Positions 6,132 through 23,725 of a DNA stretch of 64,000 nucleotides are shown here, one piece after another. Within the stretch, counting starts at the first letter, position 1. Each line of letters begins with the position of its first letter. The notes under the pieces were generated by a model. That model saw only the letters and a program-made list of their open reading frames with translations, was not told the origin of the DNA and searched no databases. The translations under genes were made by a program, and so were the position numbers. The stretch is from Escherichia phage EF202P1, in sequence record OP172796.1; one strand, given 5' to 3'.

Positions 6132-6158
6132 AAAATAAAAAAGGCTCCCGAAGGAGCC
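6132..6158 (-). terminator. rho-independent terminator (minus strand)
   Basis: GGCTCC-CGAA-GGAGCC hairpin with T-run on the minus strand, just after the lysozyme gene. Confidence 0.65.
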
Positions 6159-6168
6159 TATGAAGATA

Positions 6169-6633
6169 TTACTTTGGGTATACACTGTCAAGATAAATGT
6201 CAGCTTCCATTCTACGTCTGTTTTTCAGGCCGTTTGAAGTGACCTTCTTACCTTTGACTGTAACCTTGTTCCACCACTGCATAGCTTCTGCACAACCTAC
6301 CTTATTACCAGCATTGTGGCGCTTGATAAATGTAGAATCCTGCATAGCTGTGATACCGATGTTGTATGTTTCACTTACAAGTGCATCGAACTCGTTCTGA
6401 GAAGTTGGAACCTTGATAGCTTTATTCACTGCTGCAACGAACTTCTCAACATCTGCAAGAAGATACTGTTCAGCTTGTTCAGCAGTAATTTTCATACCCA
6501 TCTTAACAGGTTTTCCGTCAATACGGATTGTACCATACCCGATTGTTGGGATTCCGGCAGAGTCTTCGTAAGCCTCTAACTTCAGACCTTCAAAGAACTT
6601 AATAGCTTCTAAACCTTTTCTTGAGAGTTGCAT
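6169..6633 (-). CDS. phage lysozyme / endolysin (T4 e-type, GH24-like)
   Basis: LEAYEDSAGIPTIGYGT motif typical of T4-type lysozymes; 154 aa. Confidence 0.8.
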   Translation of the reverse strand: MQLSRKGLEAIKFFEGLKLEAYEDSAGIPTIGYGTIRIDGKPVKMGMKITAEQAEQYLLADVEKFVAAVNKAIKVPTSQNEFDALVSETYNIGITAMQDSTFIKRHNAGNKVGCAEAMQWWNKVTVKGKKVTSNGLKNRRRMEADIYLDSVYPK

Positions 6634-7517
6634 TATGCCTCCCCTGTTGGGTTAACTGTAACTGTTGCCGCATTAGATGTTACAGAGCCACCTGCACCAG
6701 TAACTACACAAGTGTAGCTTCCTGCATCAGCAGCAGTTGCACCTTCTTTGGTGTAAGTTGCAGCAGTTGCGTCTGGGATGACTTCCTCACCTTTCTTCCA
6801 CTGGTAACCTGTTGCACCTGTTGCAGTCACTGCTAAGTTGATGTTCCCACCTTCATTGATGGTCTGACTAGAAGGTTGTTTGGTAATCACTGGTAAGGCG
6901 TTCACAGTAACTGTTGCTGCATCTGAGGTAACACTTGTTCCAGCCTCTCCAGATACAACACAAGTGTATGAACCAGCGTCAGAAGGCGCTACAGACTGTT
7001 TTGTGTAAGTTGCAGAAGTGGCACTGGGGATGTCCTCACCATCCTTCTTCCACTGATAGCCAGTGGCGTTAGTTGCTAGAACACTTAGAGTGAGTGTACC
7101 GCCCTCATTGACTGTTTGGCCTGTTGGTTGCTGAGTAATTGCTGGTGGCTTAATAGCATCTTTCAGCTTAGCATTCAACATTGAGAAAGGCTTAACTCTT
7201 GCCAGCCATTCACAATAAACTGTATCAACGTCTTTACCATTGATAATTGCGTATTGTAAATCCATGAAGAAGTCAGAAGTTCTCATTTGAGCACCGATGC
7301 TGTAAAGCAAATCATCACTAAAAGGGACTTTGTAGTCTGGTTTGTAGTCAAACTTCTCAACTTCTGCGATATCAGCTTCAGGCCAATATGAACTATAGGT
7401 AAGTGGTAAAATAGCTTCTTGATATGTTCTAAAATCATACCTCTTACCAGCCTTTACATTTGCAACGAAACCCTTTACAAATTCTTTGAAGTCTGGGTAA
7501 GTCTTTGCTTTAATCAT
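6633..7517 (-). CDS. protein with N-terminal domain paralogous to the 7514-7885 product plus two tandem Ig-like domains
   Basis: Two ~85-aa repeats (YQWKKDGEDIPSATSATYTK...AGSYTCVV) with Ig I-set-like signature; N-terminal ~120 aa resemble the adjacent ORF. Confidence 0.7.
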   Translation of the reverse strand: MIKAKTYPDFKEFVKGFVANVKAGKRYDFRTYQEAILPLTYSSYWPEADIAEVEKFDYKPDYKVPFSDDLLYSIGAQMRTSDFFMDLQYAIINGKDVDTVYCEWLARVKPFSMLNAKLKDAIKPPAITQQPTGQTVNEGGTLTLSVLATNATGYQWKKDGEDIPSATSATYTKQSVAPSDAGSYTCVVSGEAGTSVTSDAATVTVNALPVITKQPSSQTINEGGNINLAVTATGATGYQWKKGEEVIPDATAATYTKEGATAADAGSYTCVVTGAGGSVTSNAATVTVNPTGEA

Positions 7518-7885
7518 TTCTTTTTAGCCTCTAAACGTGCGTTTAATCTAAAATAGCCTTTATGTTGTGGAGACACATCACTAACAACAATACCTTCAAC
7601 TTTATAACCCTTACCAATTACATACTGGATATCCATAAGAAACGTACCAAGCCCAACAATGTGGAACATTGGGTATAGCAACTTATCTGAATCTGGGAGT
7701 TTAATTTCTGGGTTATAGGTGGGTTGTTCGGCGGTTGGTGTAATATCCTCTTCAGGCCATTTACTCATTCTCCATGTTAAAGGTGATGCAACAACATCGT
7801 TAAGATTGTATCTTTCACCATTCTCCACGGAGTGGATATAGGATTGTAGGAAGCAATAAAAGTCTTTTGCACTCTTAGCCTTCAT
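7514..7885 (-). CDS. hypothetical protein, paralog of the N-terminal domain of the 6633-7517 product
   Basis: Shared order of motifs (KDF..F...V..G.RY; WPE(E/A)DI; LLY; FxMD(I/L)QY). Confidence 0.65.
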   Translation of the reverse strand: MKAKSAKDFYCFLQSYIHSVENGERYNLNDVVASPLTWRMSKWPEEDITPTAEQPTYNPEIKLPDSDKLLYPMFHIVGLGTFLMDIQYVIGKGYKVEGIVVSDVSPQHKGYFRLNARLEAKKK

Positions 7886-7899
7886 TAAATATCCTTATA

Positions 7900-7923
7900 A
7901 ACAGATAAAGGGGCATCAGCCCC
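7900..7923 (-). terminator. hairpin terminator (likely minus strand)
   Basis: GGGGC-ATCA-GCCCC hairpin flanked by T-rich sequence on the minus strand. Confidence 0.5.
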
Positions 7924-7932
7924 TGTTTATAC

Positions 7933-8523
7933 TTAAGCTTTGGTCTTAAGTAGGTTCTTAAGTTTTTTGAGATTCATGCTCTCGTCAAACTTAAAACCAA
8001 ATCCATTGACATAATCAATGAACTCGGATTTCTTACTAAGTGATAGTGCGTAACTCATATCAAAGTTATTACTTGTTTCTGCGTCTGGACTAGAGTTCAC
8101 ATCAAATGAAATTTCTGTAGGCTCTTGCTTGCTACTTCTCATATTATCAATCAATAGACAGGTGTAGTTCGCTGGATAGAAGTTAACACTCCCATCAACA
8201 TACCCATACTTATTATTGTGAATAAGGCTGGAAAATACCTTAAGAAATGTTTCTGAGTCGTGGCATACAAGTTTGAATTGACTGCATTCCCCAAGAGCCA
8301 CTAAAGAGTAAGGGCTTTCACTATCAATGTCATAGTTTGGATTTGATGTTGTAACCGTCACACGCATCAAGTTATTAGCAATAGTCTTCTGCTTGAAAGA
8401 ATTTGGGACATAGTGAAGACCTCTATCACACTGATTAACTAGCTCTTTCAATAGGTCATTTGCATATGGTGAATTAATTGATACAGAGCCATCACTATTA
8501 TAATTAAAACTTACTGTTAACAT
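7933..8523 (-). CDS. hypothetical protein (196 aa)
   Basis: ORF. Confidence 0.6.
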   Translation of the reverse strand: MLTVSFNYNSDGSVSINSPYANDLLKELVNQCDRGLHYVPNSFKQKTIANNLMRVTVTTSNPNYDIDSESPYSLVALGECSQFKLVCHDSETFLKVFSSLIHNNKYGYVDGSVNFYPANYTCLLIDNMRSSKQEPTEISFDVNSSPDAETSNNFDMSYALSLSKKSEFIDYVNGFGFKFDESMNLKKLKNLLKTKA

Positions 8524-14562: not shown

Positions 14563-15120
14563 ATGAGATATTTGAAGTATGCTTCATGGATTTTCTTAGC
14601 TTTGTTAGAGCCATTTGCAGCAATCTTAGCAGTTATCTTAGCACCTTTCGTAGTTCCATTCTACAGTGAGAAGAAAGGACATCTCCCTTTTGGATTCAGA
14701 TGGATGGAGACATATGATAACCCAATTGATGGTGATGAAGGCCACGTTAAAAGATGGGCTAAGATTAGAAAGATTGGTAAGCTTGGTGTCTATATGCAGA
14801 GAGTTGGTTGGCTCTGGAGAAACAAAGCTTATAACTTCTCTTACCATGTGTTAGGAAGAGATGTAAAAGATGTTACTAAGTGGAAAGGCAATATCAATGT
14901 AAGTTCTAACCCTGAAGATAATCAGACAGGTTATCTCCTAATGTGGAACAGTAATGCTTGGGGATTATTCGCTTTTGTACCATCAATTAAAATCTTTGGT
15001 AAACAATTCTACTGGAGAATTTATGTTGGGTGGAAACTTAAAAGTGTTGTCCCAGAAGAAAGAGCATTCTCAAGGGAAAGAGTTATGTTGGCATTCTTTA
15101 TTCATCCACTAAGAAAATAA
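14563..15120 (+). CDS. hypothetical membrane-anchored protein (185 aa) embedded in the tRNA cluster
   Basis: N-terminal hydrophobic stretch WIFLALLEPFAAILAVILAPFVVPF; Trp-rich; AGAGG RBS. Confidence 0.65.
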   Translation: MRYLKYASWIFLALLEPFAAILAVILAPFVVPFYSEKKGHLPFGFRWMETYDNPIDGDEGHVKRWAKIRKIGKLGVYMQRVGWLWRNKAYNFSYHVLGRDVKDVTKWKGNINVSSNPEDNQTGYLLMWNSNAWGLFAFVPSIKIFGKQFYWRIYVGWKLKSVVPEERAFSRERVMLAFFIHPLRK

Positions 15121-15128
15121 AGATTTAA

Positions 15129-15204
15129 AGGGGATTAGTTTACAAGGTTAAAACCTCGGTCTTTGAAATCGAAGAAGTTGGTTCAATTCCAACATCCCCC
15201 GCCA
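15129..15204 (+). tRNA. tRNA-Gln (anticodon TTG)
   Basis: Acceptor AGGGGAT/ATCCCCC, anticodon loop CTTTGAA, T-arm GTTGG-TTCAATT-CCAAC, G73, CCA. Confidence 0.6.
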
Positions 15205-15206
15205 AT

Positions 15207-15285
15207 GCTCCATTACTCCAATTGGCAGAGAGGCCAGACTTAAAATCTGTGTTATGTATCGGTTCGAATCCGATATGGAGTACCA
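15207..15285 (+). tRNA. tRNA with Leu-type anticodon (TAA) but short variable arm
   Basis: Acceptor GCTCCAT/ATGGAGT, anticodon loop CTTAAAA, T-arm ATCGG-TTCGAAT-CCGAT, A73, CCA. Confidence 0.5.
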
Positions 15286-15290
15286 AATTT

Positions 15291-15366
15291 AGCGGTATAG
15301 CATAACTGGCAATGCAGCAGTCTCTGAAGCTGTCTTATTAAGGTTCAAATCCTTATGCCGCTGCCA
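15291..15366 (+). tRNA. tRNA-Gln-like (anticodon CTG; register uncertain)
   Basis: Acceptor AGCGGTA/TGCCGCT, D-arm GCAT-AACTGGCA-ATGC, loop CTCTGAA with wobble-paired stem, T-arm TAAGG-TTCAAAT-CCTTA, G73, CCA. Confidence 0.45.
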
Positions 15367-15397
15367 CTTCTAAGGGTTCTTATGAGAGTCCTTAAAT

Positions 15398-15473
15398 GTG
15401 GCCTTATCATAAAAGGTAATGACCCATGCTGTGAACATGGTCTATACGGGTTCAAATCCCGTAGGTCACCCCA
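15398..15473 (+). tRNA. tRNA-His (anticodon GTG)
   Basis: Acceptor GTGGCCT/AGGTCAC, anticodon arm CCATG-CTGTGAA-CATGG, T-arm ACGGG-TTCAAAT-CCCGT, C73, CCA. Confidence 0.7.
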
Positions 15474-15479
15474 ATTTAT

Positions 15480-15555
15480 AGTCCAAGTAGCTTATATGGT
15501 TAAAGCGCGTGTCTGAAAAACATGAGAAGAGGGTTCAAATCCCACTGGACTACCA
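15480..15555 (+). tRNA. tRNA-Phe (anticodon GAA)
   Basis: Acceptor AGTCCAA/CTGGACT, anticodon loop CTGAAAA, T-loop TTCAAAT, A73, CCA. Confidence 0.6.
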
Positions 15556-15571
15556 ATTTCAAAGGTGCTTA

Positions 15572-16306
15572 ATGAAAGAGATGACAGAACAAGGTAAGGA
15601 GATTTTTAATCTCTTAAAAACCGGTAGAGGGTTTTCTAATCCCCTTATTACTGGTGCAGCAGTTCTAGGTGGAACCGTGGCTGCCTCTACATCACTTGTA
15701 AGCTCTATTAGCTCTGTAACAGACCCTACAATGAAGGATAAGCTCATTGCTGCTGGACTTACAACAGTTCTGCTTAATAGCTTTACAACGAGTCTGACAA
15801 GCACTACATCAACTACTAAGACATTGACAGATTATGGTCAAAAGTCTATTGATGAGTTTTCTTCACGTATGCAGGTAGCAAAAGGCTACTCCAATGTTAT
15901 GGGTGCAGCAGGAGAGCAAGTCGGTTGTACACCATTTAGTGGTATTATGGGTGTTGCTACAGAATATGGTCAAAAAGCTATTGACACAATTAACAGTGCA
16001 CTAGATGGTGTTAATGGTGTATTAAGCGACTTACAAGATGCTATTGACAAAGGTCTTGATACTATTTCTGATTTAGCTAACCAAGCTGTTAGCAAGATTA
16101 ATGAGGGTATCTCAAAGATTACAGCTTATGCAGATGAAGTTGTGCAGATGATTGAAGAAGAAGCTGCCCTTATTGCAGAGTACCTTAAAACGAATATCAA
16201 TGGGTTCTTAGCAGGTATCTTACCAGACTGGTTTGATGATGCTTGTAAAACTGGTGTGATTGACACTATTGCAACACCAGAAATGAAGAACGCATTACAG
16301 AAATAA
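15572..16306 (+). CDS. hypothetical protein (244 aa), Ser/Thr-rich N-terminal region
   Basis: ORF; start moved to ATG 15572 because the longer ORF would overlap tRNA-Phe. Confidence 0.6.
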   Translation: MKEMTEQGKEIFNLLKTGRGFSNPLITGAAVLGGTVAASTSLVSSISSVTDPTMKDKLIAAGLTTVLLNSFTTSLTSTTSTTKTLTDYGQKSIDEFSSRMQVAKGYSNVMGAAGEQVGCTPFSGIMGVATEYGQKAIDTINSALDGVNGVLSDLQDAIDKGLDTISDLANQAVSKINEGISKITAYADEVVQMIEEEAALIAEYLKTNINGFLAGILPDWFDDACKTGVIDTIATPEMKNALQK

Positions 16307-16307
16307 T

Positions 16308-16400
16308 GGAAGATTAACCCTAAAAGGTAAGGGAGCAGTTTGCTAAACTGCCAGTAGCTGAGAAATCGGTGTACCAGTTCAAGTCTGGTATCTTCCTCCA
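16308..16400 (+). tRNA. tRNA-Ser (anticodon GCT), long variable arm
   Basis: Acceptor GGAAGAT/ATCTTCC, anticodon arm GCAGT-TTGCTAA-ACTGC, long variable arm, T-arm ACCAG-TTCAAGT-CTGGT, CCA. Confidence 0.7.
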
Positions 16401-16404
16401 ATTT

Positions 16405-16480
16405 GAATCCGTGACAGAAATGGCTATGTGCCTGTCTGCAAAACAGGTTTATAAGGGTTCGAGTCCCTTCGGATTCTCCA
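16405..16480 (+). tRNA. tRNA-Cys (anticodon GCA)
   Basis: Acceptor GAATCCG/CGGATTC, anticodon arm CCTGT-CTGCAAA-ACAGG, T-loop TTCGAGT, U73, CCA. Confidence 0.7.
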
Positions 16481-22621: not shown

Positions 22622-23725
22622 ATGTTGACTAATTCTGAAAAAAGCAGATTTTTCCTTGCTGACCTGACTGGTGAAGTCCAGTCTATCCCAAATACTTATG
22701 GGTATATTTCCAACTTAGGTCTGTTCCGTTCAGCACCAATCACCCAAACCACTTTCCTTATGGACTTGACTGATTGGGATGTTAGCTTGCTTGATGCGGT
22801 AGACCGTGATAGCCGTAAAGCAGAGACTAGCGCACCTGAGCGTGTTCGTCAAATCAGCTTCCCAATGATGTACTTCAAAGAAGTTGAAAGCATCACTCCT
22901 GATGAAATTCAGGGTGTACGTCAGCCAGGCACTGCAAACGAGCTTACTACTGAAGCTGTAGTACGTGCTAAGAAGCTGATGAAGATTCGTACCAAGTTCG
23001 ATATTACTCGTGAGTTCCTGTTTATGCAAGCTCTGAAGGGTAAAGTTGTCGATGCTCGTGGTACTCTGTACGCTGACCTGTACAAGCAGTTCGATGTTGA
23101 GAAGAAGACTGTTTACTTCGACCTTGACAACCCTAATGCTGATATCGACGCTTCTATTGAAGAACTGCGTATGCACATGGAAGATGAAGCTAAGACTGGC
23201 ACTGTAATCAACGGTGAAGAAATTCACGTAGTTGTTGACCGTGTGTTCTTCAGCAAGCTGACTAAACATCCTAAGATTCGTGATGCTTATCTTGCACAGC
23301 AGACTCCGCTGGCTTGGCAACAGATTACTGGTTCTCTGAGAACTGGTGGTACTGACGGCGTTCAGGCTCATATGAACACCTTCTACTACGGTGGTGTTAA
23401 GTTTGTCCAGTACAACGGTAAGTTCAAAGACAAGCGCGGTAAGGTTCACACTCTGGTGAGCATTGATGGTGCAGCAGCAACTGTTGGTGTTGGTCATGCC
23501 TTCCCTAACGTTTCTATGCTGGGTGAAGCAAACAACATCTTCGAAGTGGCTTATGGTCCATGTCCTAAGATGGGTTACGCAAATACACTTGGTCAGGAAC
23601 TGTACGTATTCGAATACGAAAAAGACCGTGACGAAGGTATTGACTTCGAAGCTCACTCTTACATGCTGCCATACTGTACTCGTCCTCAGTTGCTGGTAGA
23701 TGTTCGTGCTGACGCCAAAGACTAA
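22622..23725 (+). CDS. major capsid protein (putative)
   Basis: 367-aa ORF after protease/decoration genes; synonymous-codon bias typical of a highly expressed gene. Confidence 0.7.
   Translation: MLTNSEKSRFFLADLTGEVQSIPNTYGYISNLGLFRSAPITQTTFLMDLTDWDVSLLDAVDRDSRKAETSAPERVRQISFPMMYFKEVESITPDEIQGVRQPGTANELTTEAVVRAKKLMKIRTKFDITREFLFMQALKGKVVDARGTLYADLYKQFDVEKKTVYFDLDNPNADIDASIEELRMHMEDEAKTGTVINGEEIHVVVDRVFFSKLTKHPKIRDAYLAQQTPLAWQQITGSLRTGGTDGVQAHMNTFYYGGVKFVQYNGKFKDKRGKVHTLVSIDGAAATVGVGHAFPNVSMLGEANNIFEVAYGPCPKMGYANTLGQELYVFEYEKDRDEGIDFEAHSYMLPYCTRPQLLVDVRADAKD

Follow-up and report, generated by a model that had tools for sequence, protein, structure and literature searches.

The closest described relatives of the locus studied here are capsid decoration proteins of Felix O1-like phages, namely Hex-Dec of Bas63 (9NCF chain S), gp20 of Sf14 (9C2D/9C3A chain S) and gp36 of Felix O1. 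The Bas63 and Sf14 proteins were placed in their capsids by cryo-EM in 2025, with the capsid-binding domain (CapBD) located only in the edge/pentamer-proximal hexamers of the T=9 capsid, and one to four Ig domains have been predicted across the genus (PMC12609058, PMC11821841). In Sf14, Arg79 and Arg107 of this domain are salt-bridged to Asp221 of the major capsid protein (MCP) (PMC11821841). Felix O1 gp36 (31.6 kDa) was detected by mass spectrometry in CsCl-purified virions with 44% coverage (2010).

The window analyzed in this work is a stretch of 64,000 nucleotides from Escherichia phage EF202P1 (OP172796.1), which is matched by about 250 Felixounavirus records at 93-96% nucleotide identity; its source is a Felix O1-like myophage (Felixounavirus). 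Our analysis confirmed both tandem open reading frames that the original prediction had placed upstream of a lysozyme gene, at 7514-7885 (minus strand, 123 aa) and 6633-7517 (minus strand, 294 aa). The features of the locus, with the evidence for each of them, are as follows.

7909..7924, minus strand: conserved GC-rich hairpin with a weak T-run, between the ORF38 ortholog and the paralog (terminator scan, RNA fold)
7514..7885, minus strand: stand-alone CapBD paralog, 123 aa (CapBD similarity; ortholog of Felix O1 ORF37 and Bas63 bas63_0125)
6633..7517, minus strand: predicted Hex-Dec, Hoc-like hexamer-centre capsid decoration protein, 294 aa (PDB, PHROG and Felix O1 ORF36 matches)
7152..7517, minus strand: CapBD of Hex-Dec, aa 1-122, with Arg79 and Arg107 (identity to Bas63 and Felix O1)
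6894..7145, minus strand: Ig-like domain 1, aa 125-208, equivalent to Bas63 repeat 1 (Pfam Ig_3/I-set; pLDDT ~95)
6642..6893, minus strand: Ig-like domain 2, aa 209-292, chimera with a repeat-2 head and a repeat-4 tail, as numbered in the four-repeat form (sliding DNA identity)
6169..6633, minus strand: GH24 endolysin, ortholog of Felix O1 gp35 (Pfam PF00959, E 6.6e-41; Felix O1 ORF35 annotation)
6142..6159, minus strand: intrinsic-terminator-like hairpin with a T-run, directly 3' of the endolysin gene (terminator scan, RNA fold)
22622..23720, plus strand: major capsid protein gene, the predicted binding partner of Hex-Dec (blastn with Felix O1 ORF58, 96% identity; annotation)

The 294-aa product matched the Bas63 chain 9ncf_S (E 2.4e-247) and the Sf14 chain 9c2d_S (E 2.6e-185) in phmmer searches against the PDB, as well as phrog_3995 (E 1.7e-168), and its ORF equals Felix O1 ORF36 in length and position. 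Over the N-terminal domain and the first Ig domains, the product is ~97-99% identical to Bas63 Hex-Dec, the chain in capsid map 9NCF. Identity of the CapBD amounts to 99% with Bas63, 98% with Felix O1, ~82-88% with Sf14 and 82-90% with Suspvirus/Mooglevirus loci. Arg79 and Arg107 are present in the window CapBD, conserved in all three described proteins and invariant across 25 distinct CapBDs, and the domain evolves with an omega of 0.043. As judged from these matches, the 294-aa protein is an ortholog of Felix O1 gp36, Bas63 Hex-Dec (gp124) and Sf14 gp20, and the decoration role of the Ig-domain gene product is already known in Felix O1-like phages. Hence, one of two readings originally proposed, that of a decoration protein whose gene lies apart from the structural module, proved correct, given the identity with solved orthologs and an MCP gene located ~15 kb from the Hex-Dec gene on the opposite strand. 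For the orthologs, mass spectrometry and cryo-EM reveal essentially a virion decoration component only, an outcome that the original prediction had itself named as speaking against its lysis reading.

By the orthologous structures, the Hex-Dec CapBD would be a monomeric plug in the middle of those T=9 head hexamers that lie next to pentamers, where Arg79 and Arg107 would anchor it to capsid protein Asp221; with one copy per asymmetric unit, symmetry would bring the total to 60 on each capsid. The pair of acidic Ig-like domains (pI 4.8 for the whole protein) would project outward from the capsid, and their probable role, by analogy with proposals for T4 Hoc, is weak surface adhesion or the control of particle aggregation. 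We infer the capsid location in EF202P1 itself from the solved orthologs. AlphaFold2 modelled the Ig domains of the full 294-aa protein well (pLDDT ~95 over residues 125-290) and the CapBD poorly (pLDDT 30-55), a modelling problem that was also met by the authors of the Sf14 structure (PMC11821841). The two halves of the CapBD, for which a pseudo-C2 internal duplication has been described, showed no trace of it in sequence when compared by hhalign (probability 0.1%). Most GenBank records still mis-annotate the Hex-Dec gene as 'tail protein'.

The presence of two Ig-like repeats of ~85 aa, as originally proposed, was upheld by structure prediction and by profile search, with Pfam Ig_3 (5e-22), Ig_2 (3.5e-19) and I-set (1.4e-15) each matching two stretches. 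The two repeats of the window are identical at 56 of 85 residues. Sliding DNA identity revealed that the first ~90 nt of the second repeat are 87% identical to Bas63 repeat 2 and the remainder 90-97% identical to Bas63 repeat 4, with the switch located at the ATGYQWKK motif. The number of repeats per protein is two in the window and Felix O1, three in Sf14 and four in Bas63. In-register homologous recombination between repeats is the process that changes the Ig copy number (1-4) of the group, which includes at least two independent two-Ig architectures. Recombination at a conserved motif answers the question of Ig number left open by both structural papers.

Genes of the locus are tightly packed, with the junction ATGA formed by the paralog stop and the Ig-gene start, and TAATG at 6633 formed by the Ig-gene stop and the lysozyme start; the latter, in which the endolysin start overlaps the Hex-Dec stop by 1 nt, bears out the overlap claimed earlier. 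The same or near-equivalent gene overlaps were found in 29 related loci of three genera. The order of an ORF38-like gene, Hex-Dec and endolysin is conserved, on the strand opposite to the structural module. The hairpin at 7909..7924 (RNA fold -15 kcal/mol), whose stem persists in four lineages despite changes to both loop and stem, is predicted to be a leaky terminator or an RNA stability element. A sequence scan between this hairpin and the paralog start found no sigma-70-like promoter. The hairpin at 6142..6159 (RNA fold -12.9 kcal/mol) is followed by UUUUUUAUUUU and, as a terminator-like element, is predicted to close a three-gene unit of paralog, Hex-Dec and endolysin; for Felix O1, a complement-strand terminator is listed as t35. 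The early/lysis-type operon initially suspected was not borne out: RT-PCR in Felix O1 assigned ORF36 and ORF37 to the late class, alongside portal, sheath and fibre genes, in a noisy timing table that places capsid gene ORF58 in the 5-min class.

The 123-aa paralog shares 36% identity over 121 residues with the 294-aa product (BLASTP, E 7e-17), and PHROGs and PDB-sequence searches link both proteins independently, thus confirming the predicted common N-terminal domain of ~120 aa. Its only relatives in the PDB are Hex-Dec chains (phmmer E 7.6e-14), and its model, which is of moderate confidence (pLDDT 67), matched only 9ncf_S and 9c2d_S in Foldseek (TM 0.61, prob 1.0). The protein belongs to phrog_4463, annotated as unknown function; the searchable literature holds no description of it, and neither structural paper mentions it (PMC12609058, PMC11821841). 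Word-indexed searches for wider relatives of the CapBD retrieved near-orthologs only. As an exhaustive profile search yielded only 13 representatives among 1.84 billion, the CapBD family appears to be confined to Ounavirinae-like phages.

Paralogs were monophyletic in 199 of 200 bootstraps and go back to a single CapBD duplication. In the NJ tree used to place the duplication relative to the Kolesnikvirus split, paralogs and ingroup CapBDs were grouped against the outgroups in none of the 200 bootstraps. The tandem layout of paralog and Hex-Dec recurs in a fourth, deeply divergent lineage. Thirty invariant positions are common to paralog and CapBD. The position of Arg79 is occupied in paralogs by an invariant Gly78 and that of Arg107 by Gln, His or Arg, and the Arg79 loop of the CapBD is replaced by the invariant hydrophobic motif LLYPMFHIVGLG.

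The paralog is missing from published lists of confidently identified virion proteins: gp37 is not among the proteins detected in Felix O1 virions, and the VpaE1 virion proteome likewise lacks the paralog. The wV8 and UAB_Phi87 papers contain no usable virion proteomics on these genes. We tentatively regard the paralog as a dispensable, non-structural late protein, translationally coupled to Hex-Dec, that may have gained a new role from the capsid-binding fold, either as a transient factor or as a decoy, two options that together amount to a minority expectation. As a transient factor, it might act on the capsid protein or Hex-Dec during head maturation, which is a guess that we would put at well below even chances; by binding to Hex-Dec itself, or to capsomers that are immature or of a particular kind, it may set the site and time of Hex-Dec loading (60 of 80 hexamers). 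Alternatively, the paralog may act as a decoy against host sensing of the capsid or the decoration protein. If either option is true, the paralog would represent a duplicate of a decoration domain recruited to regulation and not to display.

Somewhat less likely, the paralog could be a second, Ig-less decoration protein on sites unused by Hex-Dec, e.g., the 20 true three-fold hexamers, and missed at low affinity or occupancy. The retained CapBD fold with its shared invariant positions, the late expression alongside Hex-Dec in Felix O1 and the occurrence of two Hoc-like proteins with a common capsid-binding domain in T4-like phages (PMC10385173) are in line with such a role. Moreover, the most distant proteins with a CapBD in the alignment lack a conserved Arg79, and the absence of this residue from the paralog is therefore no proof against capsid binding. 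However, the anchoring arginines are replaced, the Felix O1 and VpaE1 lists lack the paralog though proteins down to 9.7 kDa were detected, and no density on other hexamers was reported for Bas63 and Sf14, whose genomes carry intact paralogs (PMC12609058, PMC11821841). In addition, a gentle method, differential centrifugation, had been used to prepare the Sf14 sample (PMC11821841).

It is improbable that a partial tandem duplication left the paralog behind as a remnant that has no function and is drifting to loss. Its ~3-fold faster evolution than that of the CapBD, and its state as a pseudogene in one viable sub-lineage, would fit such a fate: an intact copy is missing in ~20 of 252 records, and the three compared (Tf, REP5 and FGS030) share one lesion. 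Nevertheless, the omega of the paralog (0.126 vs 0.043 for the CapBD) is far below 1, and the gene is maintained by purifying selection. Four lineages, with identity falling to 48%, all retain an unbroken ORF of 122-124 aa whose start/stop overlaps are also conserved, and the protein has its own invariant motif of 12 residues.

A holin/antiholin-like lysis protein acting as partner of the endolysin is very unlikely and was rejected: no holin has yet been assigned in Felix O1 and segment 73-91 of the paralog is far more hydrophobic than its CapBD counterpart (KD 1.34 vs 0.45), but this maximum 19-residue score is below the usual transmembrane threshold of ~1.6, so that the Kyte-Doolittle scan found no transmembrane-grade segment, the segment contains His, Asp and Gln, its counterpart in the globular CapBD fold is a helix, and outgroup phages with the same endolysin arrangement (Kolesnikvirus M7, Yersinia P778 and Pectobacterium Arno162, in which the endolysin gene follows a Hex-Dec-like gene) lack the paralog. 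Equally little credit can be given to the original proposal that the Ig-domain protein is an envelope- or peptidoglycan-binding accessory of the co-translated lysozyme, a proposal favoured by the 1-nt overlap and by an endolysin adjacency conserved across Ounavirinae, behind which some functional coupling could lie; this reading was rejected because Pfam and NCBIfam gave no match to LysM, SH3, PG_binding, SPOR or any other envelope-binding domain, and two cryo-EM structures show the orthologs as part of the capsid, while virion proteomes contain them as well. Furthermore, the endolysin is by itself a complete GH24 enzyme, the Hex-Dec-like and endolysin genes of the outgroups are ~50 nt apart and not coupled, and Bas63 g124 was non-essential on three of four hosts tested; E. 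coli S17-1 is a host on which it matters. The endolysin adjacency is most likely late-gene synteny conserved across Ounavirinae and not a functional lysis link. Taken jointly, the explanation that combines Hex-Dec decoration, repeat recombination, a CapBD duplicate and late-gene synteny is highly probable.

The corrected reading assigns the Ig-domain gene beside the lysozyme gene of Felix O1-like phages to head decoration and brings to light a separate, conserved gene in which the capsid-binding domain is duplicated without Ig domains. Felix O1-like phages are used in Salmonella typing, biocontrol and phage display, and display engineering may benefit from a known capsid-anchoring gene that tolerates an I-set Ig, Big_2 or disordered tail as its C-terminal cargo.

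Among known systems, the nearest precedent for the paralog pair is provided by the second Hoc-like proteins of the T4-like phages Muldoon and PG7, where two genes per genome share a capsid-binding domain and differ in cargo (PMC10385173). These second copies keep a display module (Ig or GDSL lipase), whereas the window paralog has none and, unlike them, has diverged at the anchoring residues and is not found on virions. The decoration protein pb10 of T5 (PDB 5LXK, 8ZVI) matches in its Ig part (E ~1e-12), but its capsid-binding domain is absent from the fold matches of the paralog model and from the exhaustive profile search. T4 Hoc resembles Hex-Dec as a non-essential monomer at the hexamer centre with an acidic string of Ig-like domains of variable number (PMC10385173). 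In contrast, the capsid-binding domain is C-terminal in Hoc and N-terminal in Hex-Dec, has a distinct topology with no detectable sequence similarity (PMC12609058), and Hex-Dec is limited to a subset of hexamers. Membership in the T4 Hoc family was rejected on the reversed domain order and on PHROG matches to 'Hoc-like head decoration' that cover only residues ~120-292, the Ig part; Hex-Dec is an analogue of T4 Hoc and not a member of its family. Bas63 Hex-Dec, Sf14 gp20 and Felix O1 gp36 are orthologous to the window protein and occupy the same genomic position, and their I-set-like C-terminal repeats are alike, with only the number and make-up of the Ig domains differing.

Two minus-strand reading frames with a common N-terminal domain, as the original prediction had it, were recovered with exact coordinates, the ~120 shared residues aligning at 36% identity (E 7e-17). 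The shorter frame (the short paralog) meets the Ig-domain gene at an ATGA junction, and the proposed overlap of the Ig-gene stop with the lysozyme start was found as TAATG, the product of the downstream gene matching Phage_lysozyme (PF00959, Pfam E 6.6e-41). The region shares 93-96% DNA identity with ~250 Felix O1-like phages whose hosts are E. coli, Salmonella, Shigella and Citrobacter, and its Felix O1 equivalents are ORF37 (123 aa), ORF36 (294 aa, labelled 'tail protein') and ORF35 (endolysin). Two terminator-like hairpins bracket this three-gene unit.

Features of the locus and the capsid gene
7924-7909, minus strand: terminator-like hairpin upstream of the short paralog
7514-7885, minus strand: short paralog, ORF of 123 aa
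6633-7517, minus strand: Ig-domain protein (Hex-Dec), ORF of 294 aa
6159-6142, minus strand: terminator-like hairpin at the downstream end of the unit
22622-23720, plus strand: capsid protein gene, ~15 kb from the Hex-Dec gene, past a cluster of 25 tRNA genes

Four lineages keep the upstream GC hairpin (7909-7924) despite substitutions in its stem and loop, and there is no room for a conventional promoter between it and the short paralog start. A second inverted repeat, ACTTAAG...CTTAAGT (about 7931-7953, minus strand), lies across the stop codon of the Felix O1 ORF38 ortholog (7933-8523, minus strand; 196 aa, phrog_4034, no Pfam or NCBIfam match), a gene that borders the Hex-Dec locus immediately upstream in all Ounavirinae genomes examined, including those lacking the short paralog. 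The tRNA genes are clustered at 11178-16480 (plus strand), with a divergent promoter region on one side and the packaging/structural module on the other. Just upstream of them, 9596-11011 (plus strand) codes for a protein of 471 aa that matches DUF2828, DUF7788 and, weakly, VWA_2; it is called 'RNA-binding protein' in relatives and is kept in position in Yersinia phage P778.

The Ig protein, the main component of the observation, is already known and structurally characterised. Its predicted Ig-like domains were borne out by Pfam (Ig_3 5e-22, Ig_2 3.5e-19 and I-set 1.4e-15, two stretches each) and by AlphaFold2, which modelled residues 125-290 as two beta-sandwiches (pLDDT about 95); the two repeats have 56 of 85 residues in common. 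Sequence search of the PDB returned capsid chains, namely chain S of 9NCF, the 'immunoglobulin-like domain protein' of Escherichia phage Bas63 (E 2.4e-247), and chain S of 9C2D/9C3A from Shigella phage Sf14 (E 2.6e-185), which supports a decoration protein coded away from the structural module, the capsid gene lying ~15 kb off on the other strand. In Bas63 this Hoc-like protein was named Hex-Dec; the domain at its N-terminus that binds the capsid (CapBD) sits tightly in the centres of facet-edge hexamers only, the Ig domains are flexible and unresolved in the map, and one to four of them were predicted across the genus (PMC12609058). Sf14 gp20 was found by particle MS with one monomer per asymmetric unit; it binds through its first 118 residues, Arg79 and Arg107 forming salt bridges to capsid protein Asp221, and is missing from true three-fold hexamers (PMC11821841). 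Both arginines occur in the window protein and are invariant among 25 distinct CapBDs, and the window CapBD shares 99% identity with the Bas63 domain, 98% with the Felix O1 one and 82-90% with those of Suspvirus and Mooglevirus loci. In 2010, gp36 was identified in Felix O1 virions banded in CsCl (44% coverage, reported mass 31.6 kDa; calculated for the window protein, 31.3 kDa). By PhageMaP, three hosts tolerated loss of Bas63 g124, the Hex-Dec gene, which mattered more on S17-1, and an adsorption role was suggested by the PhageMaP authors.

The alternative proposal of a cell-envelope-binding accessory to the lysozyme is not supported, as no link to lysis was found beyond position and no peptidoglycan- or envelope-binding domain was detected in the Ig protein by Pfam/NCBIfam. 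A Felix O1 RT-PCR survey assigns the peaks of ORF36 and ORF37 to the 60-min class, alongside the portal, sheath and fibre genes, and that of lysin ORF35 to 25 min; the table is noisy, since its 5-min class includes the capsid gene. The order of a Hex-Dec-like gene followed by the endolysin, ~50 nt apart, recurs in Kolesnikvirus M7, Yersinia phage P778 and Pectobacterium phage Arno162, and the adjacency is therefore an old synteny of the subfamily.

Hex-Dec measured 210, 294, 377 or 460 aa in 29 loci, corresponding to one, two, three or four repeats, and the head and tail of each repeat were compared separately with the four Bas63 repeats. Bas63 repeats 1, 2 and 4 make up the three-repeat forms; in the window and Felix O1, repeat 1 is followed by a chimera of a repeat-2 head (85-87%) and a repeat-4 tail (90-97%); the remaining two-repeat forms carry repeats 1 and 4, and one-repeat forms join a repeat-1 head to a repeat-4 tail. 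The first head and last tail are kept in every form and the chimeras switch at the conserved ATGYQWKK motif, so in-register recombination has removed (or added) repeats on several independent occasions; both structural papers left the mechanism open (PMC12609058, PMC11821841). Among non-phage PDB entries, the repeats (6642-7145, minus strand) came closest to GhpA, a grappling-hook protein from Aureispira, which is a predatory bacterium (E 2e-29); they matched T5 pb10 and animal Ig proteins less strongly, a hint that the repeats originated in a bacterial surface protein.

Searched exhaustively with a profile, 1.84 billion representative proteins yielded only 13 members of the CapBD family. Such narrowness is consistent with the poor AlphaFold2 model of the window CapBD (7152-7517, minus strand; pLDDT 30-55), though the domain is ordered in two cryo-EM maps. 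Its C-terminal cargo comprises I-set Ig repeats in the window's group; in distant relatives (Erwinia phage vB_EamM-M7 gp008, L033 2501-3121, and proteins P0099-P0103) it is fused to other cargo, namely a Big_2 domain (Pfam 8.5e-21) in Erwinia Kolesnikviruses, a single I-set domain (P0101) and a K/S-rich low-complexity tail (P0102; nearest phage relatives in Pectobacterium and Yersinia phages, 37% identity). The short paralog carries no cargo. This variety suggests that the CapBD may be a modular display scaffold.

The short paralog is a real gene. It matches no Pfam or NCBIfam family, forms its own PHROG (phrog_4463, function class unknown), and is not mentioned in PMC12609058, PMC11821841 or any other paper found. 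Pairwise Nei-Gojobori omega was 0.126, compared with 0.043 for CapBD, 0.126 for Ig1 and 0.081 for lysozyme. Its length stays at 122-124 aa and its overlap with the start of Hex-Dec is retained across Felixounavirus, Suspvirus and Mooglevirus, and likewise in a fourth lineage (an 87-kb metagenomic contig) at only about 48% identity; it is absent from more distant Ounavirinae. Short paralogs form a single clade (199/200 bootstraps). The AlphaFold2 model (pLDDT 67, pTM 0.69) had no PDB matches other than the two solved CapBDs of Hex-Dec (TM 0.61, probability 1.0), and 30 positions hold one and the same residue throughout both groups. In place of Arg79 the paralog has an invariant Gly, set in a motif of its own that is likewise invariant, LLYPMFHIVGLG; the residue at the Arg107 position varies, and the protein is near-neutral (pI 7.8; CapBD 5.45). 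Its maximum hydropathy of 1.34 makes a membrane role unlikely.

Of 252 phage records, about 20 have no intact short paralog. Tf, REP5 and FGS030, the three examined, have in common a ~220-bp deletion and an ATG-to-ATA start change, plus frameshifts; the loss is one ancestral event, in a viable lineage. The pseudogene of this Felixounavirus sub-lineage (2806-2997 of L003, Shigella phage Tf; also L036 and L037) keeps the last ~45 nt, which hold the Hex-Dec ribosome-binding site.

The short paralog is not among the reported virion proteins of VpaE1, nor among those of Felix O1, though a 9.7-kDa protein was detected there. Both Bas63 and Sf14 code for it, and their capsids show no density on the remaining hexamers (PMC12609058, PMC11821841). 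In the reading that we tentatively prefer, it might be a dispensable, late, non-structural derivative of the CapBD fold, acting transiently when heads mature or Hex-Dec is loaded. That it is a second decoration protein, bound weakly, would suit the fold but has the virion lists and maps against it, and is unlikely. A drifting remnant, with the loss in a viable lineage on its side and the omega and invariant motif against it, seems improbable. For two capsid-binder paralogs in a single genome, the nearest precedent is found in the T4-like phages Muldoon and PG7 (PMC10385173).
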